Source of the DNA: Burkholderiales bacterium
GTDB taxonomy: Bacteria; Pseudomonadota; Gammaproteobacteria; Burkholderiales; Burkholderiaceae_D
Direction of reading: 5' to 3'
Assembly: GCA_016177875.1 (NCBI GenBank)
Contig: JACOUL010000045.1
Coordinates: forward strand, 1,784-33,783
Length of the DNA stretch: 32,000 nucleotides
This document shows, piece by piece, positions 6,007-23,877 of this stretch. The notes below the pieces were generated by a model that was not told where the DNA came from, made no database searches, and saw nothing but the letters and a program-made list of their open reading frames with translations. The first letter of the stretch is position 1. Each line of letters opens with the position of its first letter. Position numbers and translations under genes: made by a program.

Positions 6007-6036
6007 GATGGATCGTTCTCGAGGAACTGCGCCGGA

Positions 6037-7338
6037 CTAGGATTTTCCGGAACCGGCACCGCCACTGGAGCCGCTTTTGGAGTCGTAATAGTAGGTCACG
6101 CGCTTTCTCGGGCTGAGATAGTCGTAGATTGCACGCGGCAGCTGGCCTGGGCGTATGCTTGCCGTCACACCCAAATCTGCCGACTCTTCCGCCAGATCGA
6201 GAATGATCGCGCTGTCTTTGGGAATTTCCGGGTCGTACACCAAGACGCGCGGCCGCAATGGCTTGCCGATATTGACGTTCATGACCAAACCGACCGCTTC
6301 GTTCGACAGGCGTACCAAGGTGCCCGGCGGATAAACGCCCAGGCAGCGCACCATGGTCGTCAATGCGGCAGGATCGAATTGGGCGCGCCGATGCGCATAC
6401 ATCTTCGACAAGGCTTCATGCGGCGTGAGCGATTGCGATGGGTCGACATGGTTGCATAAATTGTCATAGACGTTGGCGATCGTGACAATGCGCGTGATCA
6501 ACGGGATAGCTTCGCCTTTCAACTTATCCGGATAACCGGTGCCGTCCATGTATTCGTGATGATGGACGATCGCATCGAGCACCGCGTTGCCCATGCCGGC
6601 TTTCTTAGCGATTTCGTATCCATACCGCGTATGCAAGTTATAGAGGTCTTGTTCCGGCTTGGTAAGCGCTTCGGTTTTGAGCAGCACTTTGCTCGGCACG
6701 TCGACTTTACCAAGATCGTGGAACAGGGCGGCTGATCCGACCACCTTGATCTGATCATGCGTACACTTCAATTCATGTGCCAGCATCATCGCCAAGACGG
6801 ATACGTTCAGCGAATGGAAATACATCTCTTCCTCGCCGAAATTTTTTTGGATCAGATGCATGATCGTGTCGTTATCGGTCAGGAAGGCTTCCGCCATGGT
6901 GTTGACCAATTTTCCGGCTTCGGCGATCGTTTCCTGCGGACGCGAAAAAATATTCTTGTCGATGTTCTTGACCGTCGTTGCGGCGTGCACGAATTTTTCT
7001 TCGCAGCGCTTGATTTGTTCGCGCTGCTTCTCAAGCTGTTCCAAGCGTGCGCGTTTCGCGTCCGTGATATTGGCGTAGACGGTTGCATTCGGCGGTGCCG
7101 GTGCGGCCGGCGCTTGCTGTGTCGACGGCTCGGGTGCCCGCGGCGACACCGGGTCGCTCTTGGAAGGTATATAGCGGATATGTTTGAGGTCCAGCGCCTT
7201 CAACTCATCGATCTGCTTTTGGCTGATGATCTTGAATGAATTCATCGGGAAGGAATGCTGAAACCAGCTCAGGTCAAGCCGGATGAACATGCCGATGCGA
7301 ACCTTGTCGATCGAGATGAGCTGACTGTCTTCCGCCAT
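6037..7338 (-). CDS. HD-GYP domain c-di-GMP phosphodiesterase-type protein with a DUF3391-like N-terminus
   Basis: 433 aa. The N-terminal ISIDKVRIGMFIRLDLSWFQHSFP is DUF3391-like. HD is intact (LFHDLGK), and HHHEYMDGTGYP is intact at 6529-6564. The gene lies 30 nt upstream of the hybrid kinase on the same strand. Confidence 0.85.
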   Translation of the reverse strand: MAEDSQLISIDKVRIGMFIRLDLSWFQHSFPMNSFKIISQKQIDELKALDLKHIRYIPSKSDPVSPRAPEPSTQQAPAAPAPPNATVYANITDAKRARLEQLEKQREQIKRCEEKFVHAATTVKNIDKNIFSRPQETIAEAGKLVNTMAEAFLTDNDTIMHLIQKNFGEEEMYFHSLNVSVLAMMLAHELKCTHDQIKVVGSAALFHDLGKVDVPSKVLLKTEALTKPEQDLYNLHTRYGYEIAKKAGMGNAVLDAIVHHHEYMDGTGYPDKLKGEAIPLITRIVTIANVYDNLCNHVDPSQSLTPHEALSKMYAHRRAQFDPAALTTMVRCLGVYPPGTLVRLSNEAVGLVMNVNIGKPLRPRVLVYDPEIPKDSAIILDLAEESADLGVTASIRPGQLPRAIYDYLSPRKRVTYYYDSKSGSSGGAGSGKS

Positions 7339-7515: not shown

Positions 7516-8205
7516 TCAAGCATGCGCCATTAATTTGCCGTTGACGACTTTAACGCGGTCGCCGACTTGCCAGCCTTCTTGCGTTGCTAACGGTACGGTG
7601 CGTACCGACCCGTCTTCCATGCGGATCTTCGCTTGATAAGTGGTCGTGGAGCGGGAACGCTTTTCGATTTCGTTGCCGGCGTAACCGCCGCCCACTGCGC
7701 CCGCAACGGTCGCCAAGGTGCGGCCATTGCCGTTACCCACTTGATTCCCCAGTACGCCGCCCAAGACCGCACCGGCGACGACACCGACGCCGCTCGGTTT
7801 TGCTTGGTGCTGCACGGCATGCACGGAAACAATACGGCCGCAGCTGCGGCAAACCTTAGGCGCTTGCGCAACCGGTGCGTTGTATTGAGCGCCGCTTTGA
7901 GCACGGGGGCGAGTCGATTGGATGGCGGCGGGTTGTTTTGCCGATGCTGTTTTCGGCGGTGCGGGCAGCGGCTCGGCCTTTTCGGCGGGGGCTAAGTTAG
8001 CAACGCCTTTCATCTCGGTTGTCGAGGCCGCGGTAGTCGAGACAGGCGGCGTGCTTGCCAAATTTGCAGCCGGCGCATTATTGCTATGCGAATCCGGCAA
8101 TAGGCCAGTAATGGCGGCGACGCCGGTGAGGCTCACCAGCGTAACGGAAACGGCCGCAACGGCCACCAAAGGATGAATGCGGCTAGGCGTTTTGCCAACT
8201 TCCAT
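7516..8205 (-). CDS. Membrane-anchored glycine-zipper (Rick_17kDa/SlyB-like) protein
   Basis: 229 aa from ATG 8205, with GGAGG 5 nt upstream; the ORF track starts at TTG 8217. It has an N-terminal hydrophobic helix and an Ala/Pro-rich linker. These are followed by CRSCG and the glycine zipper GVGVVAGAVLGGVLGNQVGNGNGRTLATVAGAVGGGYAGN. Confidence 0.65.
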   Translation of the reverse strand: MEVGKTPSRIHPLVAVAAVSVTLVSLTGVAAITGLLPDSHSNNAPAANLASTPPVSTTAASTTEMKGVANLAPAEKAEPLPAPPKTASAKQPAAIQSTRPRAQSGAQYNAPVAQAPKVCRSCGRIVSVHAVQHQAKPSGVGVVAGAVLGGVLGNQVGNGNGRTLATVAGAVGGGYAGNEIEKRSRSTTTYQAKIRMEDGSVRTVPLATQEGWQVGDRVKVVNGKLMAHA

Positions 8206-8330
8206 AATTACCTCCAATCAATTCATGCGACTGTGCGTATGAATTGATTTTCGCTAGGAAGTTTCGGCAAGGCTAGACTGAATGGGTTTCAGATGTAAGC
8301 CTTTGTAACGCTTGCCGAATACATCAAACT

Positions 8331-9878: not shown

Positions 9879-10983
9879 TTAGACGCCTTGTTTCAGCGAG
9901 GCGGCGATGAAGTCGTCGAGGTCGCCGTCCAGCACGGCCTTGGTATTGCCGACTTCGTAATTGGTGCGCAAATCCTTGATGCGCGACTGGTCCAGTACGT
10001 AGGAGCGGATTTGATGGCCCCAGCCGATGTCGGTCTTGGCATCTTCCGCCTTTTGCTGCTCGGCCATGCGCTTGCGCAATTCCAGCTCGTACAAGCGCGA
10101 CTTCAGCATGGCCCACGCTTCGGCGCGGTTGCGGTGTTGACTGCGGTCGTTCTGGCATTGCACGACGATGCCGGACGGCGCGTGCGTCAAGCGCACCGCA
10201 GAGTCGGTCTTGTTGATGTGCTGGCCACCGGCGCCGGATGCGCGAAAGGTGTCGATGCGCACGTCGGCCGGGTTGACGTCGATTTCGATCGAGTCATCCA
10301 CTTCCGGGTAGACGAATACGCTGGAGAACGAGGTATGGCGGCCGTTGGCGGAATCGAAAGGCGATTTCCTCACCAGGCGATGCACACCGGACTCGGTGCG
10401 CAAAAAGCCGTAGGCATATTCGCCTTCGACTTTGATCGTGGCGGTCTTGATGCCGGCCACGTCGCCTTCGGATTCTTCCAGAAGTTCGGTCTTGAAACCT
10501 TTGCGTTCGCAGTAGCGCAGATATTGGCGCAGCAGCATGGAAGCCCAGTCTTGCGCTTCGGTGCCGCCGGCGCCGGCTTGAATATCGATGAAGCAGTTGT
10601 TGGGGTCCATCGGATTGCTAAACATCCGGCGGAATTCCATATCCTCGACTTGTTTTTTCAGCTTCTCTGCATCTTCTTCGATGGCGACGATGGTATCTTC
10701 GTCCTGCTCTTCGCGTGCCATCTCGAATAAATCCGAGGCATCTTGCAAATCGGCTTTGATCTGCGTCAGGGAAAGCACGACGGCTTCCAGGGATTTTTTT
10801 TCCTTGCCGAGATCCTGTGCCCGTTTCTGGTCATTCCAGACGTTGGGGTCTTCCAGTTCGGCGTTGACTTGTTCGAGCTTCTCCGACTTTACGTCAAAGT
10901 CAAAGATACCTCCGCAGTTCAGCTTCGCGGGTGGTGAGGTCCGCCAAGAGGGCGGAGAGGGCGTTGAGACGTTCGGCTTCCAT
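9879..10983 (-). CDS. prfB: Peptide chain release factor 2, requiring a programmed +1 ribosomal frameshift
   Basis: The ORF-track piece (9879-10778) contains SPF and GGQHVN-type ([15 protein letters not shown]) RF2 motifs. An upstream 27-codon frame starts at ATG 10983 and ends at an in-frame TGA (10900-10902) in the context CTT TGA C. The +1 frame continues directly into the main ORF. Confidence 0.93.
10899..10913 (-). promoter_or_regulatory. prfB autoregulatory +1 frameshift site (internal SD-like GGAGG, then TAT CTT TGA C)
   Basis: The minus strand reads GGAGG TAT CTT TGA C. GGAGG is at 10909-10913, CTT at 10903-10905 and TGA at 10900-10902. This matches the canonical RF2 recoding signal. 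Confidence 0.9.
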
Positions 10984-11017
10984 GATGACGAGTTGTGCGA
11001 TTAATCCTAAACCACGC

Positions 11018-11023
11018 ATTATA
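11018..11023 (-). promoter_or_regulatory. Candidate -10 box (TATAAT) for prfB-lysS
   Basis: The minus strand reads GAGTATAAT, 34 nt upstream of the prfB ATG. No convincing -35 element was found, and the site lies only about 25 nt downstream of the kinase gene's stop. Confidence 0.3.
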
Positions 11024-11047
11024 CTCGACGGGGCGTTTTGCCGATGG

Positions 11048-13411
11048 TTACAGCCGACGCGCCAATTCCTGGATTTTTCTTATCTTGAAGTAAATCGGCA
11101 GCAGTCGCCAGGCCAGCAGCCCGATGCCGCCGAGTATGGTCAAAGGCACGATGTTGGGACCGAGGAATATCGGTGCAAAAACCGCGGCGAGCAATACGAA
11201 GACGAGCACTTGCGGGCTTAACCATCCGGCATTGGCAGCCTGCCTTTCGGTTAAGGCATCGATTTGCGTGCGAATCAGAATAACCAAGCCTTCCGCACGC
11301 ATGACGGATTTTTTTAATGCCATCCACGGTTCATCCGATCTGCCCGACGAGCGGATCTTTGCCAGCAAGTCGAAATAGCGGTCGAGCGCCGCAGCCAGCT
11401 CGTCGCTGCCGAGCAGTATCTGCATGCCATTGTCGGTGACTGAGTGTATGGCGGTAACGATGAGCGCAAATTCTTGCGTCAATTCGCGGCAGACGTTCAC
11501 ATCGTCATCGCGCCGCCGCGCGTCCGCCTTGATCTGCCGCTCCATGGCCTTGCGCGCTTCGGGCAGCAAAGATTCCAGGACCAATAGCGAAGTCGGATTC
11601 ATGGTTTGCACGTCGCCCATGCCGCCGATCCACGGGCAGTGCGTTTGAATCTTGACCAGCTCTGCCGATAGCCGCATGCGCAAGCGTTCCGCCCATTGCT
11701 CGTCGTAGGCTAGCGCCAACAGGCGTGGGTGCATATCTGTCGTAGCCGGGCGATTTGGTCCGGTTTGGCCGTAAACCAGCTGGTCGAAATTGGCGTATTC
11801 ATCGGGGCCGGAGGCCGGCTTGTTTTTATCGATGAGCGCGAGTCCGTCTTCCCACGCGTGGTCGAACTTGTCGCACATGGCATGCCAACGCTGCACGATC
11901 TCGGCTGCTTCCTGGTTGCCGGCGTCGGCATAGGCTTCCAGTACACGATGGCGGTACAGCAGATCGAGCCAATGGGCGGCGTCGGCATCTCCTTTCAATG
12001 CCTGATTGGCGCGCGACAAAATGGACGGCAGCTCGATGGATTCGCCGCGCCACACCGGCGGAATCCCCGGTGCAAGAAGCAGAATCAGCTTGAGCAGCTG
12101 GGCATCCACATGCATTTGCTTGTCGAAGCGGACTTCAAGCAGCAGGCGTACGGCATTTTGGTCTTTCTGCACATCCCGAAACCAGGCTAGCAGCTGGCCG
12201 TTGTTGATGTCGGCTGCACCGTCGCGCCAATTGCGCGCCAATGCCACGGCCAATTGCTCTTTGCTGTGACAGAGCTCTTTGCCGACATGATACGGAGCGG
12301 TGAATTGACCGCCTGCTCCTGCCTCGACCGGTTCGGTAAGACTGCCGTCATTGGCTAGCCAGCGGCCGACTTCATCTGTGCCCCATCGCGTTTTCGGATC
12401 GCGCAGCAATAGGCCGCGCAAGAGTATGCGCACGCGACGGTCGGACACGCCGCTCGTGTCCATGCTTCTTGTCGTCAAGTGGTGCAGGATCACCGCTTCC
12501 GACAAGCCGGCGAAGGGATGCTTGCCTTGCCCGGCTTCAAGCAAAATCATGCCCAGCGCCCAATAATCCGATTTACCGTCAATGACGCCGGATAAACTCT
12601 CGGGCGAAGCATACGGCAAGGTACGGGCGGCGCCTGTGAAACGTTGTGTGGCGTCGAGCACGGAGGAAATGCCGAAATCGGTCAAGACCAGGTCGAGCGG
12701 CTTTTCAGTGCGCATTAGGATGTTTTCCGGCTTGAGGTCGCGATGCACCAGGCCGGCATTGTGTACGGCGGCGATTGCACTTGCCAGTTCGCGCACCACG
12801 GCGTGCAGCAATTCGCCGGCAAGGGGGCCGGAACGCAGGCGCTCGCGTAGCGAGCCGTGCTCGCAAAACTCCATCAGCTCATAGGCGTATCCATCGGAGA
12901 CACCGGACTCCAACACTTCAACGCGATGACTGGCATCGATTTTCGCGATGCGTTCCTGTACATCGCGTTTCGGCTGTATGCCGTGACGATACACTTTTGC
13001 TACGCGTGCCGGTCCGCCGCTATGTTCTTGCACAAGCAGCAGCTCAGCCTCCGAACCTTGGGCCGGCATCGGCTTGACGATGCGATAGCGTTTTCCGAGC
13101 GCTTGCGGCAAATTCACCAGGCTGGTCGTTTGATCGCGCGAAGTGAGAGCGGCGCCGTCGTTCAGGGGACGGTTGCAATACAGGCAGTTTGTGCTGCCGG
13201 CAGGATTTGGCTGGCCGCAATCCTCAAAGGGGCAGAGTACGGTATCGGCTTCCGGCAAAGCCTCTTGCGTGACAGACGCTTGCTCGGGAGATGCGGCCTG
13301 TTTCAAGATCAGATCTACGCCGGCCAGCAGCGCACCGCAAACGCAGCGCATGATGCTCGGCGCGTTCTCAGCGCCGCAAGTCGGGCAGCGGCGGACGTAG
13401 TCTGCGCTCAT
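11048..13411 (-). CDS. Hanks-type Ser/Thr protein kinase with two N-terminal zinc ribbons, a long helical middle region and a C-terminal transmembrane hairpin
   Basis: 787 aa. The zinc ribbons are CPTCG...CVCG and CPFEDCG...CLYCN. The kinase motifs are RVAKVY (the beta3 Lys), HRDLKPEN (12722-12745), DFG and ASPE. Two hydrophobic helices occupy the last ~60 aa (VLVFVLLAAVFAPIFLG / LTILGGIGLLAWRLLPIYF). Confidence 0.85.
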   Translation of the reverse strand: MSADYVRRCPTCGAENAPSIMRCVCGALLAGVDLILKQAASPEQASVTQEALPEADTVLCPFEDCGQPNPAGSTNCLYCNRPLNDGAALTSRDQTTSLVNLPQALGKRYRIVKPMPAQGSEAELLLVQEHSGGPARVAKVYRHGIQPKRDVQERIAKIDASHRVEVLESGVSDGYAYELMEFCEHGSLRERLRSGPLAGELLHAVVRELASAIAAVHNAGLVHRDLKPENILMRTEKPLDLVLTDFGISSVLDATQRFTGAARTLPYASPESLSGVIDGKSDYWALGMILLEAGQGKHPFAGLSEAVILHHLTTRSMDTSGVSDRRVRILLRGLLLRDPKTRWGTDEVGRWLANDGSLTEPVEAGAGGQFTAPYHVGKELCHSKEQLAVALARNWRDGAADINNGQLLAWFRDVQKDQNAVRLLLEVRFDKQMHVDAQLLKLILLLAPGIPPVWRGESIELPSILSRANQALKGDADAAHWLDLLYRHRVLEAYADAGNQEAAEIVQRWHAMCDKFDHAWEDGLALIDKNKPASGPDEYANFDQLVYGQTGPNRPATTDMHPRLLALAYDEQWAERLRMRLSAELVKIQTHCPWIGGMGDVQTMNPTSLLVLESLLPEARKAMERQIKADARRRDDDVNVCRELTQEFALIVTAIHSVTDNGMQILLGSDELAAALDRYFDLLAKIRSSGRSDEPWMALKKSVMRAEGLVILIRTQIDALTERQAANAGWLSPQVLVFVLLAAVFAPIFLGPNIVPLTILGGIGLLAWRLLPIYFKIRKIQELARRL

Positions 13412-14071
13412 CTACTGTCTCCAGGAGACTGCGCTGAATTCGATGCCACGCTCCTTGCAAGACGCTTCCAAGGCCGCCATATCGCCGCGCGCCGGAATGC
13501 CGACATACCAAATGCGTTCGCCATCCGCCATGGCTTGGATGCGTTTATCGGCGCTGTCCGCCGGCGCATCGACATATTCGGCATAGCGTTTTTTGCCGCG
13601 CTCGGAGAGCAGCACCAGCGGCTGGTTGGATGAGCCGCGCCAGAGATGCGTGAGCGGCCGCGCTTCCACGAAGGGTTCCGGTATCAACGCATCGAGTTTA
13701 TCCAGCAACCGGCGATGCCGCTGTTGCAGTGTTGCCAAGGGATAGCCGCTGTAACACAGGATATCGAAATCGGCGCCGCGATCGGAGCGCCAATGGAGTA
13801 AGCCGTCCAGTAGGGCGGATAAAGCTTGCGGCTGGTCGAAGGGTTCGCCGCCGGAGATGGTGACGCCGTCAAAATCCATGTCCGTCGTAATCTGCCTGCA
13901 CCAGCCGAGCAGCCGTGCTACCGTCATCTGCCGGCTCGGATCGGTCTTCCAAGTGTCTTGCGAAACGCAGCCTTTGCAACCGATGCTGCAGCCTTGCAGC
14001 CAGATGCCGATGCGCCGGCCTGGGCCAAGCACCGTCACCGGAAAGTGCGCCTTGTTGACGGCGATTTTCAT
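13412..14071 (-). CDS. Radical-SAM activase-like protein (NrdG/PflA-type 4Fe-4S single-cluster domain)
   Basis: 219 aa. VLGPGRRIGIWLQGCSIGCKGC carries CX3CX2C (Cys codons at 13988-13990, 13976-13978 and 13967-13969). The ISGGEP SAM-binding motif is present. Small size and N-terminal cluster placement match anaerobic RNR/PFL activases. Confidence 0.8.
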   Translation of the reverse strand: MKIAVNKAHFPVTVLGPGRRIGIWLQGCSIGCKGCVSQDTWKTDPSRQMTVARLLGWCRQITTDMDFDGVTISGGEPFDQPQALSALLDGLLHWRSDRGADFDILCYSGYPLATLQQRHRRLLDKLDALIPEPFVEARPLTHLWRGSSNQPLVLLSERGKKRYAEYVDAPADSADKRIQAMADGERIWYVGIPARGDMAALEASCKERGIEFSAVSWRQ

Positions 14072-15906
14072 GCGGTTTGTATGGTCAGCGTGATGACTTT
14101 ATCGGCTTCGGTGATTTGCGTGACGACCACACGCTGCTTGCCTTCCAGGTCGTGCTCGAATAGGGCACGCGACAAGGGATTGATGAACACCGATTCCAGT
14201 TGATTGCCGATGCCGCGTCCGCCGTGATCGAGGTCGCGCACGCAGCGTTCCAGCAGCGCGGCGCGGATTTCAGGCGGCATGGCGAGCTGCAGTTTGAATT
14301 CTTCGTGAAGCCGGCGCGCGACATTTTTCAGCATGCCGTCGAAAATGCGTTCAGCTACGTCGGGGGCGATGAAGTTGAACACGACGATATTGTCGCCGAT
14401 GCGGTTAAGCAGCTCGGGCCGCGACAATTTGAACTTGAAGTAATTGCCGATGGATTCCTTCACCTTCGATTCGACTGCGTCGTAAGGGTCGCCGGGACGC
14501 ACGTTTTGCACGCGATTGCCGCGCGCGTCTTCCACATAGATGCCGAGGTTGGAGGTGAACACCAGTATCGTCTCGGAAAAATACGCCGTATCGCCGCGGC
14601 CGTCGGTCAGGCGGCCGTCTTCCAGGATTTGCAGGAATTTGTCGAGTATGCGCGGATGGGCTTTTTCGATTTCGTCGAACAGGACAACCGAGAAGGGTTT
14701 TTCGCGCACGGCATTGGTCAGTTCGCCTCCCGCGTCGAAGCCGACATAGCCCGGCGGCGCGCCGAGCAGACGAGCGCCGGTATGTTCTTCGGCGAATTCA
14801 CTCATGTCGAAACGCAGATAGGCGCGCTCGTCGCCGAATACCAGTTGCGTCAGCGTTTTGGCCAGTTCGGTTTTTCCGACGCCGGTCGGTCCGGCGAAGA
14901 ACAGCACGCCGCGCGGCCGGCTGCCGCCGGAGCGTGCTTGCGCACCGGTCAATCCCATCACCGAGCGCTTAAGAATATCGAGCGTCTTCACCACCGCGGG
15001 ATGCTGGCCCTTGACGCGATCTTCGATGAAGGATTGGGCGTCGCGGATTTTCTCGCGCAGATGATCCTTGCGCCACGGATTGTCGAGCGCGCCGACTTTA
15101 TAACAGCGCACCGCATCGTCGATGTCCTTGATGCCCAGACGCTGGCGCTCCGCCAGCTCGGTGATGTCGGACAGCGCGGTTAAAGCCATGCCTTCCGTGC
15201 CCTGGGTAAAGTTTTTGATGAATTGGGCACGCGCCGCTTCGTTTGCTTCGCCGTAGCCCGCGAACAGCGGAGCCAATTGCGCCGCCGCCGCTTGCCGTGT
15301 TTCATAGTCCGGTTTGCCGATGACGAGACTGGCGACGCGCTCGCTGTCGAGCGTGAACCAGGACGGCAGATCCTGCATGCGGTTGACCATCCACAGCACC
15401 GGGTTGAATTGCGGCAGACCGGCGCCGCTGCTCGGCACGACCGGCGCGGCTGTTAATGACAACTTCTCGGCGGCGACGAAGAAACGATGCTCGCCTTCGC
15501 TCAAGTGTTCGACATGGCGTGTCAATCGCGAGGCGAAGTCGAGAACCAGCGCACAACGTGCTTCGCGCTGCGTGCTCAGGTTTTTCATCACATTGGCAAG
15601 GGTTTCCAGGCTGACTTGCTGGCTGCCGTTGGAGAGCTTCAATTCGAATAAGCGTTCAGCCAATTCGCGCTGCGCCGGTTCGTCGGGATAGGCACGTATG
15701 CCGTCCGCAGGATCGTAAACCAGCAGCAGTTTGTAGTCGCGAAGCTTGAGCGATTCCCAAAGCGCGCGCAGCAGCGGCACCAATACCGGGCCGGTCGCCA
15801 GGGGGGCAAGAAAATTATCGCGAATGCTGCCGGACACCACGAACTGCGAGCGGATGGGCAGCAGGCGTTCGAGGTCGGCAAGCCAGCGCGGTTGAGGAAT
15901 CGTCAT
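14068..15906 (-). CDS. AAA+ ATPase with a Clp/Hsp100 D2-type module (AAA_2) and an unassigned N-terminal half
   Basis: 612 aa. Residues ~295-455 are near-consensus ClpA/ClpB D2. They include Walker A GPTGVGKT (14869-14892), LLGAPPGYVGF, Walker B VVLFDEIEKAHP (14659-14688 region), LEDGRLTD and sensor-1 VFTSN. A D2-small-like segment (RPELLNRI) follows. No ClpB N-domain or Walker A is recognisable in residues 1-290. Confidence 0.85.
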   Translation of the reverse strand: MTIPQPRWLADLERLLPIRSQFVVSGSIRDNFLAPLATGPVLVPLLRALWESLKLRDYKLLLVYDPADGIRAYPDEPAQRELAERLFELKLSNGSQQVSLETLANVMKNLSTQREARCALVLDFASRLTRHVEHLSEGEHRFFVAAEKLSLTAAPVVPSSGAGLPQFNPVLWMVNRMQDLPSWFTLDSERVASLVIGKPDYETRQAAAAQLAPLFAGYGEANEAARAQFIKNFTQGTEGMALTALSDITELAERQRLGIKDIDDAVRCYKVGALDNPWRKDHLREKIRDAQSFIEDRVKGQHPAVVKTLDILKRSVMGLTGAQARSGGSRPRGVLFFAGPTGVGKTELAKTLTQLVFGDERAYLRFDMSEFAEEHTGARLLGAPPGYVGFDAGGELTNAVREKPFSVVLFDEIEKAHPRILDKFLQILEDGRLTDGRGDTAYFSETILVFTSNLGIYVEDARGNRVQNVRPGDPYDAVESKVKESIGNYFKFKLSRPELLNRIGDNIVVFNFIAPDVAERIFDGMLKNVARRLHEEFKLQLAMPPEIRAALLERCVRDLDHGGRGIGNQLESVFINPLSRALFEHDLEGKQRVVVTQITEADKVITLTIQTA

Positions 15907-16970
15907 TTGATCGTACGGGTCAAGGGTTGGGTATTCGGCAGGTGAGTCTCCTCGTCGGCAAATGTCGGTAGCTTGCCGGCGTCAACCAATTGCACCGGCA
16001 ATTCGCCCGCTGCAAGCCGCCGCGTGACGTTGAAGCTGATGCCGCGCGCTTCCAATGCTTTCATGAGCGCCGGGAATTCGGCGCACCATCGGTCTTCGGC
16101 AAGGTGGTCGAGCACGCTACGTTCGTTTTCGCCCTCGGCGACTGCGCGGATGACGTTGAAGTTCGCCGTGCTGGTCTTGGGATCGATGCGCATGCGCACC
16201 ATGTAATTGCCCCAGCCCTGACGGCGGAAATGCACGACGCCGCCTTCGACGAACAGCGTTTCGGCAATCTCTTCGACTTGATAGCCGAGATCCTTGAGCG
16301 ATTGGCCGACGATGACGGCGCTTGCTTCCTGCACCTGGCGCCGTTGCGTCTCTTCGGCCAGCGTCTGGATGCGTTTGCGTAGTTCGGTGGCCAGCAAATC
16401 GGCGCGTTCGCCGGGCAGGCAATTGTCGAGTTCGAGCGCGACGTCTTGCAAATCCGCCGGCGGCGGGCCGAGGTGCGCTATGCGTGCGAGCAGCCGCTGC
16501 GCAATACTTTGCGGCACGGAAGCGGTCGCCGATATATGCATTTCGCCCAACGGTGCAGAGGATTCGTCTGCCAGCCGCGCGGCTTCGGTCAGGAGGATGG
16601 CGCGCAGGTCGTCGGCCAGCGTTTGCAAGGCGCGCACATAGGCTGCCTGCGCCTGGATGTCGGTGCCGTCGGGTGCTTGCGGGCGAGTCGCACGGGCCTG
16701 TTCGCCGAGTCCCAAGTTGTCCGCCAATGCGATCAGTTGATCGAGCGTGGTTTGCGCGGCTAAGGTTTCTTGCTCAAGCGCTTCCCGGCCTTGCTCGCCG
16801 GCGCCGGTTTGATGCGCTTGCCGGGCACGCTGGTCTTCGCTATGCGCCCGGCGCAAGTTGGATTCATTGACGTAGCCTTCATAAACGGCGGCCGCCGCGC
16901 GGATCGCCGCTGCGGAGAGCAGTGCGGCTACAGGATTTGCTGCGACGACGGCAGTGATCGGACCGCTCAT
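15903..16970 (-). CDS. Hypothetical protein (Ala-rich hydrophobic N-terminus, Gln/Ala-rich helical middle, globular C-terminal region)
   Basis: 355 aa and the first gene of the cassette. Its stop overlaps the ATPase start (ATGA at 15903-15906). No motif was recognised. Coding is supported mainly by length, operon position and absence of a better alternative frame. Confidence 0.55.
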   Translation of the reverse strand: MSGPITAVVAANPVAALLSAAAIRAAAAVYEGYVNESNLRRAHSEDQRARQAHQTGAGEQGREALEQETLAAQTTLDQLIALADNLGLGEQARATRPQAPDGTDIQAQAAYVRALQTLADDLRAILLTEAARLADESSAPLGEMHISATASVPQSIAQRLLARIAHLGPPPADLQDVALELDNCLPGERADLLATELRKRIQTLAEETQRRQVQEASAVIVGQSLKDLGYQVEEIAETLFVEGGVVHFRRQGWGNYMVRMRIDPKTSTANFNVIRAVAEGENERSVLDHLAEDRWCAEFPALMKALEARGISFNVTRRLAAGELPVQLVDAGKLPTFADEETHLPNTQPLTRTIK

Positions 16971-17289
16971 GAGCTTTTAGTCGTTTTTGAATCGGCGTTG
17001 CTCCAGTATAGCGGTAGGCCGGGTTTTGGGAAATGCTGTGGACTATCAAGAAAACGGCTGTTCGTTTGCTTGCATTGGTAGACGTGCAACGAAAGCGTCC
17101 GCCAATTGTCAACGAATGCAAAATCCCAGGCGCTTATTAGTCTGTCATAGGCGCATCGCATGTTCGGCTGCTGGCCTTTCTGATATCGTACCGCTTCGAT
17201 AAAAACTTCAAATAGAGTCGGACAGTCCGGATTCGGCGCGCCGGTTTTTTCCGATCATAGACTTGCATACCTGTTCGAAAATTGATCCG

Positions 17290-18654
17290 ATGGTGAGCTT
17301 CTGCAACGCGCAAGGCGAGGCAGTGCGGGGCACGATCATCAATCTGCAAAGAAAATCCCTGGTGATGGAGGTATACAACCCTTACTCCATCGTGCAAGTC
17401 AGTGAAGTCCTCGCGGAAGTGACGGTACGATTCGGCGCGCAAATCGCTTATCTCGGCAAAGCAGTCGTCATCAGCCTGGTCAATACCGGACTTACCGCCA
17501 TCGTTTCGGTAACGCTCATCGACGAATGGCGTGAATTGAGCAACATGGCGGTTGCGCCGGGAAGCGTCGGAGCGGAAGCGGAAGCGTTCGTACGGGACTG
17601 GGCAGACCGTTTCCAGATCCGGCACGATTACCAAATCGTGGTGAATGAAATGCGCGCGTTTTTATCCGACGTGTCGCGCTGGATCGAGCAAGTGGACTTA
17701 TCGGACTCGCTGCCCAAGGTAAATGGCCAATTGCGCCCGGATGTCTTTTACGAACTAGCGGCTCCCTTGATGAGGAGGACCAAGTTTTACCTCGACATGC
17801 TGGAGAGCGAAGCCTCGCAAGTCGAAGAGGAGTGGACCCCGGCGCATCGTTCCTACGCGCAAACGGCATTGCATCCCTTGTTGCTCAGGGCGCCTTTCGT
17901 ATTCCGCACCTATACGAAGCCGCTGGGATACGCGGGCGACTACGAAATGGTCAACCAGATCTTGGGCGATCCGCGCCAGGGACCCAATACTTATTTTCAA
18001 ATGGTGAATGCCGCTTTCCTGCAGGCGGCGGTCGCGATCGCCCATCGCAATCGCATCGATATTCTCGTGGACTTTTTGAAGCGGAAGGCGGACGCCGCCA
18101 GGGAAGCGGGCAAGGTATTCCGTATTCTGAACGTCGGATGCGGTCCGGCTGTCGAGATAAAACGTTTTCTGCAGAGCTGTCCGCATCCCGAGTTCCTTGC
18201 TTTCGAGCTGCTCGACTTCAGCGAAGAAACCTTGGGGTGGACGCGTGATACGCTTACCGCCGTCGTCGAACAAATCGGCAAGCCGGTGGCCATTCATTAT
18301 GTGCACGAATCGGTGCATCAATTGCTCAAGCGCCGTATCGATCCGAATTCGGACGCCTCGCGCGAATTTGACGCCGTTTACTGCGCCGGCCTGTTCGATT
18401 ACCTGTCCGACAAGGTTTGCGCAAGGCTTACCGCGCATTTCGCCGCACGAACCAATCGCGGGGGCTCGATCTTGATCACCAATGTGCATTCGAGCAATCC
18501 GGAAAAGTTTGGCATGGAACACCTGTTGAATTGGTTTTTGATTTATCGAGACGAGGCGAAAATTGCGTCGCTTTTTCCGTCTCAGGCGGTTGCCCGCGAA
18601 GTTTGGGTCGATGCGACGGGAGTGAATGTTTTCGCTGCGGCGAACATCCTTTGA
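17290..18654 (+). CDS. Class I SAM-dependent methyltransferase with an N-terminal extension (PhcB-like architecture)
   Basis: Motif I is FRILNVGCGPAVE, with the acidic post-I residue in LLDFSEE. AVYCAGLFDYLSD and ILITNV also fit the class I fold. The ATG at 17290 is preferred; the ORF track starts at TTG 17263. Confidence 0.75.
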   Translation: MVSFCNAQGEAVRGTIINLQRKSLVMEVYNPYSIVQVSEVLAEVTVRFGAQIAYLGKAVVISLVNTGLTAIVSVTLIDEWRELSNMAVAPGSVGAEAEAFVRDWADRFQIRHDYQIVVNEMRAFLSDVSRWIEQVDLSDSLPKVNGQLRPDVFYELAAPLMRRTKFYLDMLESEASQVEEEWTPAHRSYAQTALHPLLLRAPFVFRTYTKPLGYAGDYEMVNQILGDPRQGPNTYFQMVNAAFLQAAVAIAHRNRIDILVDFLKRKADAAREAGKVFRILNVGCGPAVEIKRFLQSCPHPEFLAFELLDFSEETLGWTRDTLTAVVEQIGKPVAIHYVHESVHQLLKRRIDPNSDASREFDAVYCAGLFDYLSDKVCARLTAHFAARTNRGGSILITNVHSSNPEKFGMEHLLNWFLIYRDEAKIASLFPSQAVAREVWVDATGVNVFAAANIL

Positions 18655-18671
18655 TAGGGCAGGAAGATCGG

Positions 18672-20000
18672 ATGGCTAAAGATCTGCATGCGGAATACGA
18701 AATAAACCTGAGAGAATTTCGCGTCGAATTCAGCCGCGGCGGCGCTTATACCGGCATTGTCCTGATCCTGCTTGGCGTCGGCTTGGATTACAGTCTTTAT
18801 CCGCACATGCAGCTCGAATTTGCGGCCGTCAGAATCGGCGTTTCTTTCCTGATTTACGGCATCATTCGGATGATGGAAACGAATTGGGGAAAGGATAGGA
18901 TCCAGTGGCTCACATTCGCCTGGCTGGTGCTGCCGCAGATCATGATTGCGTGGATGATTGCCGTGACGGAAGGGCCAAGCTCGATCTATTACGCCGGGTT
19001 GACCCTCGCCATGTATGCGGCCGGTATCGTGCTGACCTTCGGCCTTTGGCAAAACATCGTCTTCGGTGCCTTGACCATACTGTTTTATGTGCTTGCTTGC
19101 GCGTTTCATCCCAACAGTGCCGGGTTGCGCGGCATTTTTGCCGTCAACGTGATGCTATTGTTTATGGCGGCCACGGTCAGCGCCGTCTATACCTACTTCA
19201 ACGAACGCGGACGTTTTATGCTGTTTCGCCTCAAAGCGGAACTAGCGAACAAGAATGAACAGTTGGAAGAAACGAATAAGAATTTGACGGAAATCAAAGG
19301 GCATATGCTCCAACAGGAAAAAATGGCAGCCCTCGGCACGCTTTCCGCTGGGCTGCTGCATGAGGTAAATAATCCAGTCAATTATTGTCTGATGGCGGTC
19401 GACGTCGCAATGGAAAATCCGGCGGCGAAATCCAATGCGCCGCTTTATGAATGCCTTGTCGATGCGAAAGAAGGCATGCAAAGAATCCACCACATCGTGT
19501 CAGACCTCAAGACTTTCGCGTATCGGACCAGGGATACGTCGAGCTTGAAAAAAGTTTTTCTTTTGGAAAAAGCCATCGATTCGGCGGTTCGCCTCGTGGG
19601 GCATGAAACCAAGGGCATTGCGATCAGCCGCGACCTGCCATCCGACACCCTGGTGCAAGGGGACGAGGCGGCCATTGTCGGCGTGCTGGTCAACTTGCTG
19701 AGCAACGCAGCCTTGGCGATACGTGCGGCAAACCGGGCGGAGCCATCCGTTCATCTGACTGCCGCTTGGGAAGGCAACAGCTTGCGTGTTACGGTGCAGG
19801 ATAACGGCCCCGGCATCGCCCCCGAAAATCTCGCGCGCGTGTTCGAACCGTTTTTCACCACGCGCGAAGTCGGAAAAGGCCTTGGGCTGGGGCTGAGTAT
19901 CAGCTATAGCGTGATTGAGCGCCACGGGGGCACATTGACCGCCGAAAGCGCTGTCGGCGAATGGACCAGAATGATTTTCGATCTGCCGCGGGCCGCATAA
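18672..20000 (+). CDS. Polytopic membrane sensor histidine kinase (about 6 TM segments, HisKA, HATPase_c)
   Basis: 442 aa from ATG 18672, preceded by AGGAAG; the ORF-track start at 18417 overlaps the methyltransferase. It has six hydrophobic helices. The H-box is EKMAALGTLSAGLLHEVNNP, the N-box is LVNLLSNA, and the G-boxes are DNGPGI / GKGLGLGLSISYS. Confidence 0.85.
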   Translation: MAKDLHAEYEINLREFRVEFSRGGAYTGIVLILLGVGLDYSLYPHMQLEFAAVRIGVSFLIYGIIRMMETNWGKDRIQWLTFAWLVLPQIMIAWMIAVTEGPSSIYYAGLTLAMYAAGIVLTFGLWQNIVFGALTILFYVLACAFHPNSAGLRGIFAVNVMLLFMAATVSAVYTYFNERGRFMLFRLKAELANKNEQLEETNKNLTEIKGHMLQQEKMAALGTLSAGLLHEVNNPVNYCLMAVDVAMENPAAKSNAPLYECLVDAKEGMQRIHHIVSDLKTFAYRTRDTSSLKKVFLLEKAIDSAVRLVGHETKGIAISRDLPSDTLVQGDEAAIVGVLVNLLSNAALAIRAANRAEPSVHLTAAWEGNSLRVTVQDNGPGIAPENLARVFEPFFTTREVGKGLGLGLSISYSVIERHGGTLTAESAVGEWTRMIFDLPRAA

Positions 20001-20037
20001 TTCCGGCTGCGGGGAGCCACGTGAAGAGGAGCAAGAA

Positions 20038-21060
20038 ATGACCGATCAAGGCATCATAGCCCCGCTGATTCTGTTCGTTGACGATGAGGCGGTGGTAGTC
20101 AAATACTTTCAACGGGCGATTGATGCCTTGGCTCCGGTAATTACTGCCAGCAGCGTCGAGGAAGGAAGGCGCATACTTGATGAACATGCGCATACGCTCG
20201 CGGTGCTGGTGTCCGATCAGCGCATGCCGGGCGGATACGGCAATGAGTTGCTGCACTACGCTCGAACCCGATATCCGGACATCGTGCGAATACTGACTAC
20301 GGCTTATTCAGAGCTCGAACATACCATCGAGGCGGTCAATCAAGGGCAGATCCATCGATATATCCAAAAGCCGTGGGAAATATCTGCGCTCAGAATGGAA
20401 TTGAAGCAGGCGCTTGAATTGGCGGCATTGCGCAAGGATCATTCACGGCTTCTGCGCGAGAAAATGACCGTGCGGCAAAAGCAAATTGTCTCGAACCGCA
20501 TCGGCGCCTTGCATTCCCTTTGCGCCAGCCTTGCCGCATCGCCGCAGATATTGCCGATTGAAGTATATTTGGCGGCTGCCGCAATCGTCGGCGTGGAGAC
20601 GCCTGAGCCGGACTGGTTGCTGACCGACTATTCGGATTTGATCAGTGCGGAAGCGCACCGCAGCGGCCAATTCGGACATGATGTCCGCAATAAGCTGGCG
20701 GACATCCGGCGGCGCTTTCCGGATCGGCAGGGTAAGGATGTACTCACGCTATTGCCGGAAATGATCGAGGCTGAAATTTCCGCCGATGGAACGATCGACT
20801 TTCCCGATCGGCGGAATTTTGCGGAGTTTCTGGAAACGCCTTCTAATGCACCGATTTCATCGAAACACGCCGCTTGGCTGGCATTTCTGATCTGGTTGCA
20901 CGATTCGGGTTGTTCGTTGAGGCTGACGAAGCCGGAAGCCGGCGTGCAGTGCGGTCTTTACGCGTCGGTTACGCCTACCCCCGACAAGCTCGCGGAATGG
21001 ATTGAGCAGTTTTCCGACATGCTCGTTTTGAACAAAAAGGAAAACGCGCGTTTTATCTGA
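20038..21060 (+). CDS. Response regulator: REC domain plus a ~200-aa C-terminal domain with no recognisable HTH
   Basis: 340 aa, with AGGAG 8 nt upstream. The REC domain has ILFVDDE, VLVSDQRMPGGYG and HRYIQKPW. The C-terminal region begins with an H-box-like helix (REKMTVRQKQIVSNRIGALHSL). Confidence 0.8.
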   Translation: MTDQGIIAPLILFVDDEAVVVKYFQRAIDALAPVITASSVEEGRRILDEHAHTLAVLVSDQRMPGGYGNELLHYARTRYPDIVRILTTAYSELEHTIEAVNQGQIHRYIQKPWEISALRMELKQALELAALRKDHSRLLREKMTVRQKQIVSNRIGALHSLCASLAASPQILPIEVYLAAAAIVGVETPEPDWLLTDYSDLISAEAHRSGQFGHDVRNKLADIRRRFPDRQGKDVLTLLPEMIEAEISADGTIDFPDRRNFAEFLETPSNAPISSKHAAWLAFLIWLHDSGCSLRLTKPEAGVQCGLYASVTPTPDKLAEWIEQFSDMLVLNKKENARFI

Positions 21061-21075
21061 CATTGTCTGAAAATC

Positions 21076-22767
21076 TTACACCGCATGCTCCACGATCAAT
21101 TGGACCTTGGTCACGCCGTTGTATTCATTGTTGTCGAGCCTGTAGGCAATGAGAGCGTTTTCCGGCAAGGCGTCGGCATGGCCGAACCAGATCGCGTCGT
21201 AACGCTGGCCGTCTTTTTCCAGGAGCAGCTTGAGATGCCGCTCCTTAAGCACGCGCTGGTTCAGCACACGGAAGGTGTCGCAAAAGACCGGCGGCGGAAA
21301 ACCTTGTCCCCAGACTTGCTCCTCCAACAGCGTGACGAATTGCGGCGTGAAGTAAGCGTCTTCCAGTGTGCCGTCGGTTTCGACAATGCGTTGCAGTTCG
21401 GCCTCGCTGAGCCATTCCCGGCCGATGGTTTCAAATGCATCCGAGAATGCTTCAAAAGCGTCGGCGCGTATGGTGAGCCCGGCGGCCATCGCGTGTCCGC
21501 CGAATTTATTGATCAAAGCCGGCGCATGTTTGGAAACTAGATCGAGCGCGTCACGCAGGTGAAATCCGGCAATCGAGCGGCCGGAGCCTTTGATCGACAC
21601 GCCGTCGCCGGCCGGCGCAAAAGTAATCGTGGGGCGATAAAACTTGTCTTTTAGGCGCGAGGCGACAATGCCGATCACGCCTTGATGCCATGACGCATCG
21701 AATACAGTGATGGTCGAGCAGTTTTGAGGATCGAAGTTGTCTAAGAGCGATAGGGCGGTGTCTTGCATGCCGGCTTCAATATCGCGCCGCTCGCGGTTGA
21801 TGGCATCGAGTTGATGCGCGATATTCCAAGCCTTGCCTTCGTCGTCGGTAAGCAGGCATTCGATGCCGAGCGACATATCGGCCAGACGCCCGGCTGCATT
21901 CAAACGCGGTCCGAGCGCAAATCCCAAATCGAAGGGTGTCGCCTTGCGCGCTTCGCGACCGGCGGCGCGGAACAGGGCGGCGACACCGGTGTGCATGCGT
22001 CCGGCGCGCATGCGCTTCAAACCCTGGGCCACCAGGATGCGATTGTTGGCATCGAGCTTGACGACGTCGGCCACGGTGCCGAGTGCCACCAGATCGAGCA
22101 GCGTATCCAGCTTGGGCTGGCTGGCCGCATCGAATACGCCACGTCGGCGCAATTCGCTGCGCAAGGCCAGCAGCACATAAAACATGACGCCGACGCCGGC
22201 CAAATTCTTGCTGGGAAAACCGCATTGGGGCTGGTTCGGATTGACGATTACACGAGCGGCCGGCAGCGTATCGCCCGGTAAATGGTGATCCGTCACCACG
22301 ACTTCGATGCCGCGCCGGTTGGCTTCGGCCACGCCCTCGACGCTGGCGATGCCGTTGTCGACGGTGATGATGATGTCCGGGGATTTTTCGCGCACGGCGA
22401 GTTCGACGATTTCCGGCGTCAAGCCGTAGCCGTATTCGAAGCGGTTCGGCACGATAAAGTCGACCCTGGCGCCCATGGCGCGCAAACCGCGCAAGGCCAC
22501 CGCGCAGGCGGTGGCGCCGTCGCAATCGTAGTCGGCGACGATCGTCAGCTTTTTTTGTGCATCAATGGCATCGGCTAAAAAGCTTGCGGCGGCATCTACA
22601 CGCATGAGGTTCGCCGGCGCAATCAATCCGGTGAATTCGCTCGACAATTCGCGTATATCTTCCAGGCCGCGAGCCGCATACAGGCGCGCCAATACCGGGT
22701 GCACGCCTTGTTGGCGCAGCATTTCGGCCGTACGAATGGAGTAGGGGCGGGTCGCGACGCGTGTCAT
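21076..22767 (-). CDS. recJ: Single-stranded-DNA-specific exonuclease RecJ
   Basis: 563 aa. DHH-family motifs are present (IVADYDCDGATA, ITVDNG, VVVTDHH), as is DHHA1 (GGHAMAAG). Confidence 0.93.
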   Translation of the reverse strand: MTRVATRPYSIRTAEMLRQQGVHPVLARLYAARGLEDIRELSSEFTGLIAPANLMRVDAAASFLADAIDAQKKLTIVADYDCDGATACAVALRGLRAMGARVDFIVPNRFEYGYGLTPEIVELAVREKSPDIIITVDNGIASVEGVAEANRRGIEVVVTDHHLPGDTLPAARVIVNPNQPQCGFPSKNLAGVGVMFYVLLALRSELRRRGVFDAASQPKLDTLLDLVALGTVADVVKLDANNRILVAQGLKRMRAGRMHTGVAALFRAAGREARKATPFDLGFALGPRLNAAGRLADMSLGIECLLTDDEGKAWNIAHQLDAINRERRDIEAGMQDTALSLLDNFDPQNCSTITVFDASWHQGVIGIVASRLKDKFYRPTITFAPAGDGVSIKGSGRSIAGFHLRDALDLVSKHAPALINKFGGHAMAAGLTIRADAFEAFSDAFETIGREWLSEAELQRIVETDGTLEDAYFTPQFVTLLEEQVWGQGFPPPVFCDTFRVLNQRVLKERHLKLLLEKDGQRYDAIWFGHADALPENALIAYRLDNNEYNGVTKVQLIVEHAV

Positions 22768-23807
22768 GACAATCTATTCAGGCTGGGTTTGACCCAGAAC
22801 TTATATAGGGAGCGCGACGTGATGGTGTACTCGCTTAAGCGCGTATTGTGCGTCAAGATCAGCGATATTCGATCGATGCGGCGTGCCTGCAGCGCCGACA
22901 AAAGCGGGGTGAACCATTCGCTTTCCAGCCGGTGCAAGTATTGCAGCCATGTACCCCAATCGCTGCCCAAAGCAGGTATTAATAAACTGTCGAGCATGAG
23001 TAAGCCGTGCTCCGGCGCTTGTTGGATCACTTCCGTCGCGGAAAAATCCCTGTTTGCATCGGATAAATGCGCCAATGCATCCGGCCAGCCGTGAAGCCTG
23101 AACGTTCGATCAAACCGATAGACAGGCTGAGCGGAATCGACGGACGCGCCTCCCCATAACCAAATCGAGTTCACCGGCTTATCGCCGCATCCTTCGCGCA
23201 GCTGGTTGACCGGGTGGATATGCCAATGCATTTGCACTTCGTTTTGCAGCTTGCGCCACGCACGCGCGGACTCGCCTTCGGGCATCCAAATATCGATGTT
23301 GTGGCCGGTCGCTGCATCCGGCGTCGACGTGTGCAAGTTTTGCCAGTCGTCGGCGCGCATGAACCAGGTAAGGGCATCGCCATAGACGAGCGTCTTGCCG
23401 GCTTCCTTGAACAAAGGCAAGGCGGCATCGAACAGATTGTGCGATTCTTTTTCAGATAAGGCCAATTGCCGAATGTCGGTCAAAACCAAGTGGTCGCGTG
23501 CAATATGCAGATGTACCGGATGGAGCACAAACCAAGATCCCTCGTCAGCCGCCAATTGCCGGCTTCGCATGGCCGCTTTAGCAATAGGCGGACTATTGTG
23601 AGCCGCGTTCTCGCTTAGGCCAAACTGCTGGGCCAGCCAGGTTTCATGAGGCAGTGAACGCGAAAAGGCATCGAAGCTTTCATCGGCGACAGACTGTGCC
23701 CGCGCCAACAGCATCGCCAACGCCGGTGTTTTGCAATCTCGCAATAAATCGCGGGCCAATTCCGCGGGCGGCAAGGCAAAAGGCAAGAGAATGTTCAAGT
23801 GACTCAT
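22764..23807 (-). CDS. Conserved hypothetical protein co-transcribed with recJ (possibly RpfE-type regulatory protein family)
   Basis: 347 aa from ATG 23807. The ORF-track start at 23879 would overlap the divergent lolC start. The stop overlaps the recJ start (ATGA at 22764-22767). The family assignment rests on recalled synteny only, not on a motif. Confidence 0.5.
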   Translation of the reverse strand: MSHLNILLPFALPPAELARDLLRDCKTPALAMLLARAQSVADESFDAFSRSLPHETWLAQQFGLSENAAHNSPPIAKAAMRSRQLAADEGSWFVLHPVHLHIARDHLVLTDIRQLALSEKESHNLFDAALPLFKEAGKTLVYGDALTWFMRADDWQNLHTSTPDAATGHNIDIWMPEGESARAWRKLQNEVQMHWHIHPVNQLREGCGDKPVNSIWLWGGASVDSAQPVYRFDRTFRLHGWPDALAHLSDANRDFSATEVIQQAPEHGLLMLDSLLIPALGSDWGTWLQYLHRLESEWFTPLLSALQARRIDRISLILTHNTRLSEYTITSRSLYKFWVKPSLNRLS

Positions 23808-23877
23808 GGCATGATTGTATGGCAAACTGCGACCTTTCGAGCTTCTCGTATCGTGACCTTTTCCAGGAACAATTTGC

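Follow-up and report, generated by a model that had tools for sequence, protein, structure and literature searches.

A radical-SAM enzyme with an NrdG-like core in a recurrent gene module with an AAA+ ATPase and a protein kinase

The 32,000-nucleotide stretch of contig JACOUL010000045.1 analyzed here (Burkholderiales bacterium, assembly GCA_016177875.1, positions 1,784 to 33,783; hereafter the window) encodes a small radical S-adenosylmethionine (SAM) protein on its minus strand, within a gapless run of four genes. These genes encode, in this order, an MSGP protein, so called for its N-terminal Met-Ser-Gly-Pro, an AAA+ ATPase, the radical-SAM protein and a Ser/Thr protein kinase, and the junctions between them read ATGA, ATGA, and TAGATG. 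The ATPase stop codon overlaps the radical-SAM start codon (ATGA), and the kinase start codon directly follows the radical-SAM stop codon (TAGATG); the operon is translationally coupled, with the radical-SAM gene in third place. As judged from its motifs and profile scores, it represents a distinct, unnamed subfamily of glycyl-radical-activase-like enzymes with an NrdG-like core and an apparently intact catalytic apparatus. Its product belongs as a constant member to a self-contained module that moves horizontally.

A previous reading of this DNA from the sequence alone (the sequence-only reading) had called the gene an NrdG/PflA-type activase because of an LGPG...GC block and an ISGGEP motif. 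Both are found in the open reading frame (ORF) as described: VLGPGRRIGIWLQGCSIGCKGC and TISGGEPF (residues 71–78) occur together in the protein, whose residues 15–35 read LGPGRRIGIWLQGCSIGCKGC, and the three cysteine codons lie within the interval that had been given for them (C28 at 13988–13990, C32 at 13976–13978, and C35 at 13967–13969, minus strand). The motif combination of glycyl-radical activases, an N-terminal CxxxCxxC after a GxGxR loop plus a GGE motif, is present, and the spacing from the LGPGRR loop to the “GC” is identical in this protein, Escherichia coli NrdG, and PflA (GPGxR-x6-GC). E. coli NrdG (154 amino acids, aa) shares ~30% identity over 149 aa with residues ~6–150. It ends in ...WRGSSNQVVHHLR, a motif also found at residues 144–150 of the window protein, and stops where an extension of the radical-SAM family starts. 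This extension had been put at ~70 aa by the sequence-only reading; it is present and conserved, with a length of ~65 aa. In a MAFFT alignment it is tentatively paired with the C-terminal portion of PflA from E. coli.

In an alignment of 55 diverse family members, 30–78% identical to the window protein, residues C28, C32, C35, G74-G75-E76-P77, G146, S147, N149, and Q150 are invariant in all 55, and G191-I192-P193 in the extension is kept in at least 90%. Invariance across such diverse members indicates that the motifs are not a chance occurrence, and the cysteine motif, on whose conservation in homologues the sequence-only reading had staked its proposal, is retained throughout. More than 120 database clusters of 218-aa homologues are 70–82% identical to the window protein, while the only relatives in a phage collection were NrdG proteins of the T4 type (~27% identity).

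Placement by profile searches, suggested along with that proposal, gave a graded picture. The protein matches Pfam Fer4_12 (6.6e-25, 88 bits, cut-off 22), which together with the invariant motifs bears out the activase hallmarks. NrdG (TIGR02491) is its best NCBIfam family, with 89.1 bits against a membership cut-off of 126.1. PflA (TIGR02493) scores 54.5 bits against 231.75, by a match to the N-terminal 80 residues only, and the QueE models (TIGR04322, TIGR04349, and TIGR03963) score 21.8 and 17.3 bits against cut-offs of 200–300, the higher value belonging to the E. coli-type model with its cut-off of 200. NrdG is also the best-matching model for all 55 family members; the best E-value among them, 5.7e-35, extrapolates to ~121 bits against the 126.1 required. 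The sole match among PDB sequences is PflA, over the N-terminal 70–80 residues (E 6e-6). Sub-cut-off scores, the conserved extension, and the coupling to the same partners in distant phyla (see below) argue together against a canonical NrdG; the protein is very probably a component of the four-gene module instead. It resembles NrdG (E. coli b4237) in its small single-cluster fold, in GPGxR placed six residues before GCxxxCxxC, in GGEP (or GGDP), and in WRGSSNQ, but it is never found beside nrdD and always beside the AAA+ ATPase or the kinase. With PflA (PDB 3C8F/3CB8) it shares the N-terminal region and, loosely, the C-terminal part aligned with the extension, but the cassette lacks a PFL-type partner and an RVSGY-type target motif. 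In sequence terms, the enzyme appears to descend from, and to work like, the NrdG/PflA activases; the subfamily is widespread and new, and stands in a new genomic association.

The module recurs widely. A scan of 185,579 species, with one genome for each, gave at least 379 confirmed matches encoding radical-SAM relatives, of which the best 80, with two further loci, made up 82 loci searched by tblastn and iterated profile hidden Markov models. The system-specific N-domain of the ATPase is found beside the radical-SAM gene in 68 of the 82 loci, the kinase in 64, and the C-domain of the MSGP protein in 57, and all four components are present in 55 loci that span Proteobacteria, Actinobacteria, Bacteroidota, Acidobacteria, and Chlamydiae. 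Hosts across these loci are Beta-, Gamma-, and Alphaproteobacteria, Actinobacteria, Bacteroidota, Acidobacteria, Chlamydiae, Nitrospirae, Ignavibacteria, and Firmicutes; among them are Undibacterium, Rhodoferax, Gallionella, Pseudomonas, Burkholderia, Stenotrophomonas, Bradyrhizobium, Actinomadura, Actinoplanes, Maribacter, Zobellia, Parachlamydiales, Clostridia, and members of the Acidobacteria, Nitrospirae, and Ignavibacteria. Complete genomes with the cassette include Spirillospora CP192047, Zobellia NZ_CP130738, Bradyrhizobium NZ_CP170152, and Pseudomonas brassicacearum. Gene order varies: the kinase gene lies upstream in actinomycetes, and the Pseudomonas type is ordered ATPase, radical-SAM, kinase, and MSGP protein. 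The flanks of the cassette are unrelated from genome to genome. The embedding of the radical-SAM gene in a cassette, already proposed from this one sequence, is upheld.

There are more elaborate loci. In a Thermoanaerobaculia chromosome (locus L049, 926–10657), two paralogous kinases and two likewise paralogous proteins with an MSGP-type C-domain accompany a single ATPase–radical-SAM pair, which suggests modular duplication of the variable components. In Firmicutes (L085, 9947–15990; L076, 2948–18443), the radical-SAM relatives are linked to different AAA+ proteins, one of 1,242 aa with three AAA matches and one of 772 aa with AAA_2, as well as to several large products without a Pfam family; one 1,003-aa neighbor carries Listeria-Bacteroides repeats and a Hint module.

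The AAA+ ATPase is the tightest genomic partner of the radical-SAM gene. It consists of a family-specific N-domain (residues 1–285) followed by a module of the ClpB/ClpC D2 type, which matches the D2 domains of ClpC and ClpB in the PDB at 1e-55 to 1e-58 over residues 283–610. Walker A (G339–T346), the pore loop (G386-Y-V-G389), Walker B (D411-E412), and sensor-1 are all intact, and 63 relatives conserve them. The AAA_2 and ClpB_D2-small matches, the Walker motifs, and the GYVG loop place the protein in the Clp/Hsp100 D2 type, while an assignment as a ClpB, ClpA, or ClpV equivalog was rejected by its scores (251 versus 1232 bits and similar). The N-domain gave no signal in an hhalign comparison with the D2 module, by which a degenerate AAA module was sought, and its profile found in the PDB only a weak match to the lid region of VAT/Vps4 (E 0.003). 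Dodola DolB and PDC-M37B of PADLOC resemble the cassette ATPase in the AAA core (1e-14 to 1e-26), but these matches span only ~120 residues of the generic core. Because the ATPase N-domain, the radical-SAM protein, and the MSGP protein are without a PADLOC model, the cassette is neither Dodola nor PDC-M37.

The kinase carries two zinc ribbons, a Hanks-type domain (residues ~104–350, with HRD and DFG), a helical region, and membrane helices. Across the loci it takes two architectures. A short form (600–1,200 aa), in most cases with membrane helices in its C-terminal part, occurs in Betaproteobacteria, Actinobacteria, Acidobacteria, and Ignavibacteria, and a long form (~2,100 aa) in Gamma- and Alphaproteobacteria, Bacteroidota, and Chlamydiae adds DUF4011, a superfamily 1 helicase (AAA_11/AAA_12), and the nuclease domain REase_MTES_1575. 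The window kinase has its membrane helices in place of this helicase-nuclease. A constant core with either a membrane or a nuclease module would fit the pattern of many immune systems. The kinase domain matches the PADLOC models PD-T4-6 and mad6 (Mad6 of MADS), and the helicase-nuclease part of the long kinases matches PDC-S37 (4.8e-148), Hhe, and Mokosh MkoA; unlike the cassette, PD-T4-6, MADS, Mokosh, Hhe, and PDC-S37 are without a radical-SAM or ClpB-like partner. The zinc ribbons were considered as an NrdD-like glycyl site and rejected, as no comparable conserved glycine follows them.

The MSGP protein has no match in Pfam, NCBIfam, or PADLOC. Its AlphaFold model (predicted local distance difference test, pLDDT, 78.8; predicted template modeling score 0.76) comprises a short N-terminal strand (residues 4–11), then a long stretch of helices, and at the C-terminus an alpha/beta domain (~200–340), and found no fold match at E ≤ 0.001 in the PDB or BFVD. 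The N-terminal strand probably pairs with the C-domain, since the only other strands of the model lie there. When 1.84 billion cluster representatives were searched exhaustively with a profile, 634 matches were obtained at E ≤ 1e-3; the exact MSGP start is found in 83 of 105 near-full-length representatives, and 55 of 58 copies in the loci start with M-S-(G/S/A). Proteins with an MSGPK start adjoin the ATPase–radical-SAM pair in loci of Clostridia, Ignavibacteria, and Bacteroidota (Crocinitomix), the rest of the protein being barely recognizable. One cysteine only, C296 within D-x3-E-x2-W-C, is retained in all versions. Across phyla, no other part of the protein is as conserved as Met-Ser-Gly-Pro, after which Lys often comes next, and this N-terminus is also seen at L060 (16965–18323), L076 (7935–9992), L079 (6532–8100), and L081 (6608–8146). 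Its conservation might be explained by a site of modification, by a degron-like tag that the ATPase recognizes, or by phosphorylation at Ser2. The hairpin glycine G322 was rejected as a universal radical site; it is conserved in most members and lost in the Ignavibacteria and Bacteroidota versions.

Table 1. Features of the four-gene cassette in the window, with coordinates on the window and the basis of each assignment.
Feature	Position	Strand	Basis
Radical-SAM protein, 219 aa, ATG start	13412..14071	(-)	ORF list and DNA reading
NrdG/PflA-like core of radical-SAM protein	residues 1-154		alignment with E. coli NrdG
Codons of C28, C32, C35 (CxxxCxxC, predicted [4Fe-4S] binding)	13967..13990	(-)	invariant in 55 members
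GGEP, radical-SAM SAM-binding motif, residues 74-77	13841..13852	(-)	invariant in family alignments
C-terminal extension, residues 155-219	13415..13609	(-)	not in 154-aa E. coli NrdG
AAA+ ATPase, 612 aa	14068..15906	(-)	Pfam AAA_2 3.3e-47 and ClpB_D2-small
Ser/Thr protein kinase, 787 aa	11048..13411	(-)	Pfam Pkinase 2e-29
Kinase zinc ribbons C9-C25, C60-C79	13334-13387, 13175-13234	(-)	conserved
Kinase C-terminal membrane helices, residues ~726-775	11087-11236	(-)	hydropathy
MSGP protein, 355 aa	15903..16970	(-)	family alignment, AlphaFold model
N-terminal Met-Ser-Gly-Pro of MSGP protein	16959-16970	(-)	almost invariant
Invariant Cys296 of MSGP protein	16083-16085	(-)	family alignment
Sigma-70-like promoter match, 35-60 nucleotides upstream of first cassette gene	17005..17032	(-)	9 of 12 consensus positions only

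The cassette and three further genes (17263–21060) lie between recJ (21076–22767) and prfB-lysS. In E. coli, recJ and prfB-lysS are adjacent, and the arrangement in the window is consistent with an insertion. The three further genes, on the plus strand, are a 463-aa ORF without a Pfam match but with a possible GCGPAVE methyltransferase-like motif, a histidine kinase gene, and a response regulator gene; they may have come with the cassette or separately. The minus-strand prfB gene contains the programmed +1 frameshift site of release factor 2, GGAGGTATCTTTGAC, at 10899–10914 (start ~10983, main ORF 9879–10778); a split into two frames is thus what such a gene should show, and the shortness of the called ORF does not point to a pseudogene. 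Upstream of lysS, 3745–7338 and 7516–8217 (both minus strand) present an ordinary signaling context unrelated to the cassette, with a hybrid PAS histidine kinase (receiver, Hpt), an HD_5/DUF3391 (HD-GYP-like) protein, and a glycine-zipper 2TM protein. A 371-aa ORF at 22764–23879 (minus strand) overlaps the recJ start and has no Pfam match at 1e-5.

A partner of the kind that an activase would ordinarily serve is missing from the window and from related loci. Tblastn with E. coli NrdD and PflB (E ≤ 0.01) found no such gene in the window, in agreement with the sequence-only reading, nor in 88 related loci of up to 20 kb each; as a control, nrdG adjoins nrdD in E. coli. None of the six reading frames of the window contains the pattern RV[SCAT]G[YFW].

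The explanation that we favor overall, with modest confidence, is that of an intact, non-NrdG activase which belongs firmly to a probable conflict module and acts on a protein of the cassette. The enzyme would use its [4Fe-4S] cluster and SAM to generate a 5′-deoxyadenosyl radical and would abstract a hydrogen atom from one of the other proteins of the module. The MSGP protein, in which the invariant Ser-Gly-Pro N-terminus is exposed and a single cysteine is invariant, may be the best candidate. The AAA+ ATPase, whose gene is coupled to that of the enzyme, would engage or remodel the substrate, and the kinase, which is anchored in the membrane here and in other lineages is joined to a helicase-nuclease, might serve as sensor or effector. 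The whole module would then be a biological-conflict system of an anti-phage or abortive-infection type.

Several observations weigh against this explanation. On the side of the enzyme and its substrate, an AlphaFold model of the enzyme, built on a shallow alignment of 12 close sequences, was not good enough for use (pLDDT 60.5), and no glycyl-radical loop of the RVxG[FWY] type is found in the three cassette partners, as the sequence-only reading had also noticed: the single RVxG among them, RVKG at ATPase residue 297, is the ordinary “RVxGQ” motif of Clp/Hsp100 D2 modules. At position 3 of the MSGP protein, ~10% of members carry Ser or Ala, and actinomycete versions read MSSG(V/I) with Gly at position 4, by which Gly3 is weakened as an obligatory radical site. 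On the side of the module, L021, L022, and L034 have the radical-SAM and kinase genes without an ATPase or MSGP protein gene within 10 kb, and in Actinoallomurus (L040, L041, and L045) the ATPase and radical-SAM genes were found with no kinase or MSGP protein detected; the module is hence not strictly four-part. On the side of its role, scans with PADLOC and Pfam revealed no enrichment of known defense genes in 99 flanking ORFs. Finally, the right-flank marker genes of core defense hotspot 1 (cDHS1) of P. aeruginosa, DUF4011 and radical-SAM genes that were treated as boundary markers with no function assigned (Johnson et al., NAR 2023; PMC10250203), match the Pseudomonas-type cassette of L060 and L093–L096 in gene content. 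They are probably the same cassette, as matched by gene content and not by sequence; if so, it is core in every isolate, which is unusual for a defense system.

As for the role, our judgment inclines, without being firm, to a defense or conflict system, for which the patchy distribution, plasmid carriage, effector fusions, and defense-type neighbors in some loci speak. The cassette is carried on Rhizobium megaplasmids, and the matches are scattered thinly over the species scanned. Pseudomonas copies adjoin a gene with a Lamassu LmuB_C domain (L093) and HipAB genes (L095), a SLATT gene lies near the cassette at L001, and a distant relative at L092 is found among genes for an anti-phage dCTP deaminase, a dGTPase, and toxins. 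The latter relative, on plasmid pGM01 of Geminocystis sp. NIES-3708 (9989–16654), is 31% identical and is followed by five hypothetical genes; the region also holds BrnT and HigB toxins and a DUF1156 protein, and may be a different radical-SAM-based system. The named systems of PADLOC-DB v2 (Dodola, PDC-M37, Mokosh, PD-T4-6, and MADS) were not found in the cassette, in which only generic AAA and kinase domains match, and RefSeq has only generic names for the cassette genes. A literature search found no paper describing the module; the radical-SAM effector in FtsH/vWA systems (Kaur et al., 2020) is unrelated.

The alternative that survives best is that the module serves stress responses, proteostasis, or signaling, and that the radical-SAM enzyme matures a component of it, which is compatible with a protein substrate. 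Flanks made up mostly of metabolic or regulatory genes, HSP20 genes adjoining one copy, FHA and PP2C genes in some flanks, and the core status of the probable P. aeruginosa counterpart are in line with it. Such a role is, however, harder to reconcile with the patchy distribution (at least 379 matches across the 185,579 species genomes), with plasmid carriage, and with the two forms of the kinase, membrane helices or helicase-nuclease, which are typical of immune effectors. It is a possible reading, and the less probable one.

As for the substrate, a protein is mildly favored. Prokaryotic viperins use radical-SAM nucleotide chemistry in defense, and QueE belongs to the same Fer4_12 clade, so that a nucleotide or another small molecule might be turned into an antiviral analogue or into a signal controlling the kinase or ATPase; one distant Firmicute relative indeed has a weak match to the PADLOC models of prokaryotic viperins, pVip (3.7e-4). 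The window protein itself has no match to these models, and its QueE scores are only 17–22 bits, with QueE models matching 2 of the 55 family members (1e-5). Moreover, the loop before the cluster follows the activase pattern, not that of QueE, by alignment and by the PflA–peptide structure 3CB8, and the associated kinase is a Hanks-type protein kinase, not a nucleotide kinase. The paucity of QueE matches and the preserved GPGxR-x6-GC spacing are the grounds on which a protein is preferred to a nucleotide, and small-molecule chemistry is accordingly rated as rather unlikely. In the PflA–peptide structure, the GPGxR loop reportedly touches the substrate peptide.

It is quite unlikely that the ATPase ring threads a foreign or damaged polypeptide, for example one marked by the kinase, to a radical-SAM enzyme that damages or cleaves it as the peptidase does in Clp proteases. 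The intact GYVG pore loop and Walker motifs, and the translational coupling of the ATPase and radical-SAM genes with their adjacency in 68 of the 82 loci, would suit such a machine, and the pairing of a kinase with a Clp-type ATPase recalls the marking of substrates by McsB-ClpC. Chemistry of this kind is, however, without precedent, and the invariant MSGP protein would be left unexplained. Lastly, that this is simply the ordinary NrdG of the genome, with nrdD elsewhere and coincidental neighbors, can hardly be maintained: NrdG is the best-scoring curated family and WRGSSNQ is common to both, but the window protein and, by extrapolation from the best E-value, its 55 relatives score below the cut-off, the 65-aa extension is conserved, the gene overlaps or directly adjoins the same partners in many phyla, the 88 loci have no NrdD within 10 kb whereas nrdG and nrdD are neighbors in E. 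coli, and the hosts include Actinomadura, Zobellia, Maribacter, and Rhizobium, known as genera of strict aerobes.

Within the favored explanation, that the substrate is the MSGP protein in particular is a tentative proposal. A further step, for which we claim little probability, is that the MSGP protein is a minimal protein-radical carrier, and that the radical, or its O2-triggered backbone cleavage, switches an immune module. Hydrogen abstraction would occur at the N-terminal Ser-Gly-Pro, and the N-terminal strand, probably lying against the C-domain with its single invariant cysteine, might bring about a Gly/Cys pair as in glycyl-radical enzymes; the switch would be gated by the AAA+ ATPase and the kinase, in hosts that are largely aerobic.

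To our knowledge, the characterized activases of the NrdG/PflA clade all serve anaerobic glycyl-radical enzymes, and many genera that carry the cassette are aerobes. If the target is a protein of the cassette, the module would represent a new kind of radical-SAM protein modification, possibly with a new protein-radical carrier; were the carrier proposal true, glycyl- or thiyl-radical protein chemistry would operate outside anaerobic metabolism, in the service of conflict. The known radical-SAM precedent in bacterial immunity is nucleotide chemistry of the viperin type, and if the module is defensive, radical protein chemistry would be added to bacterial immunity. The module may, in addition, account for the conserved genes at the edge of the main defense hotspot of P. 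aeruginosa.

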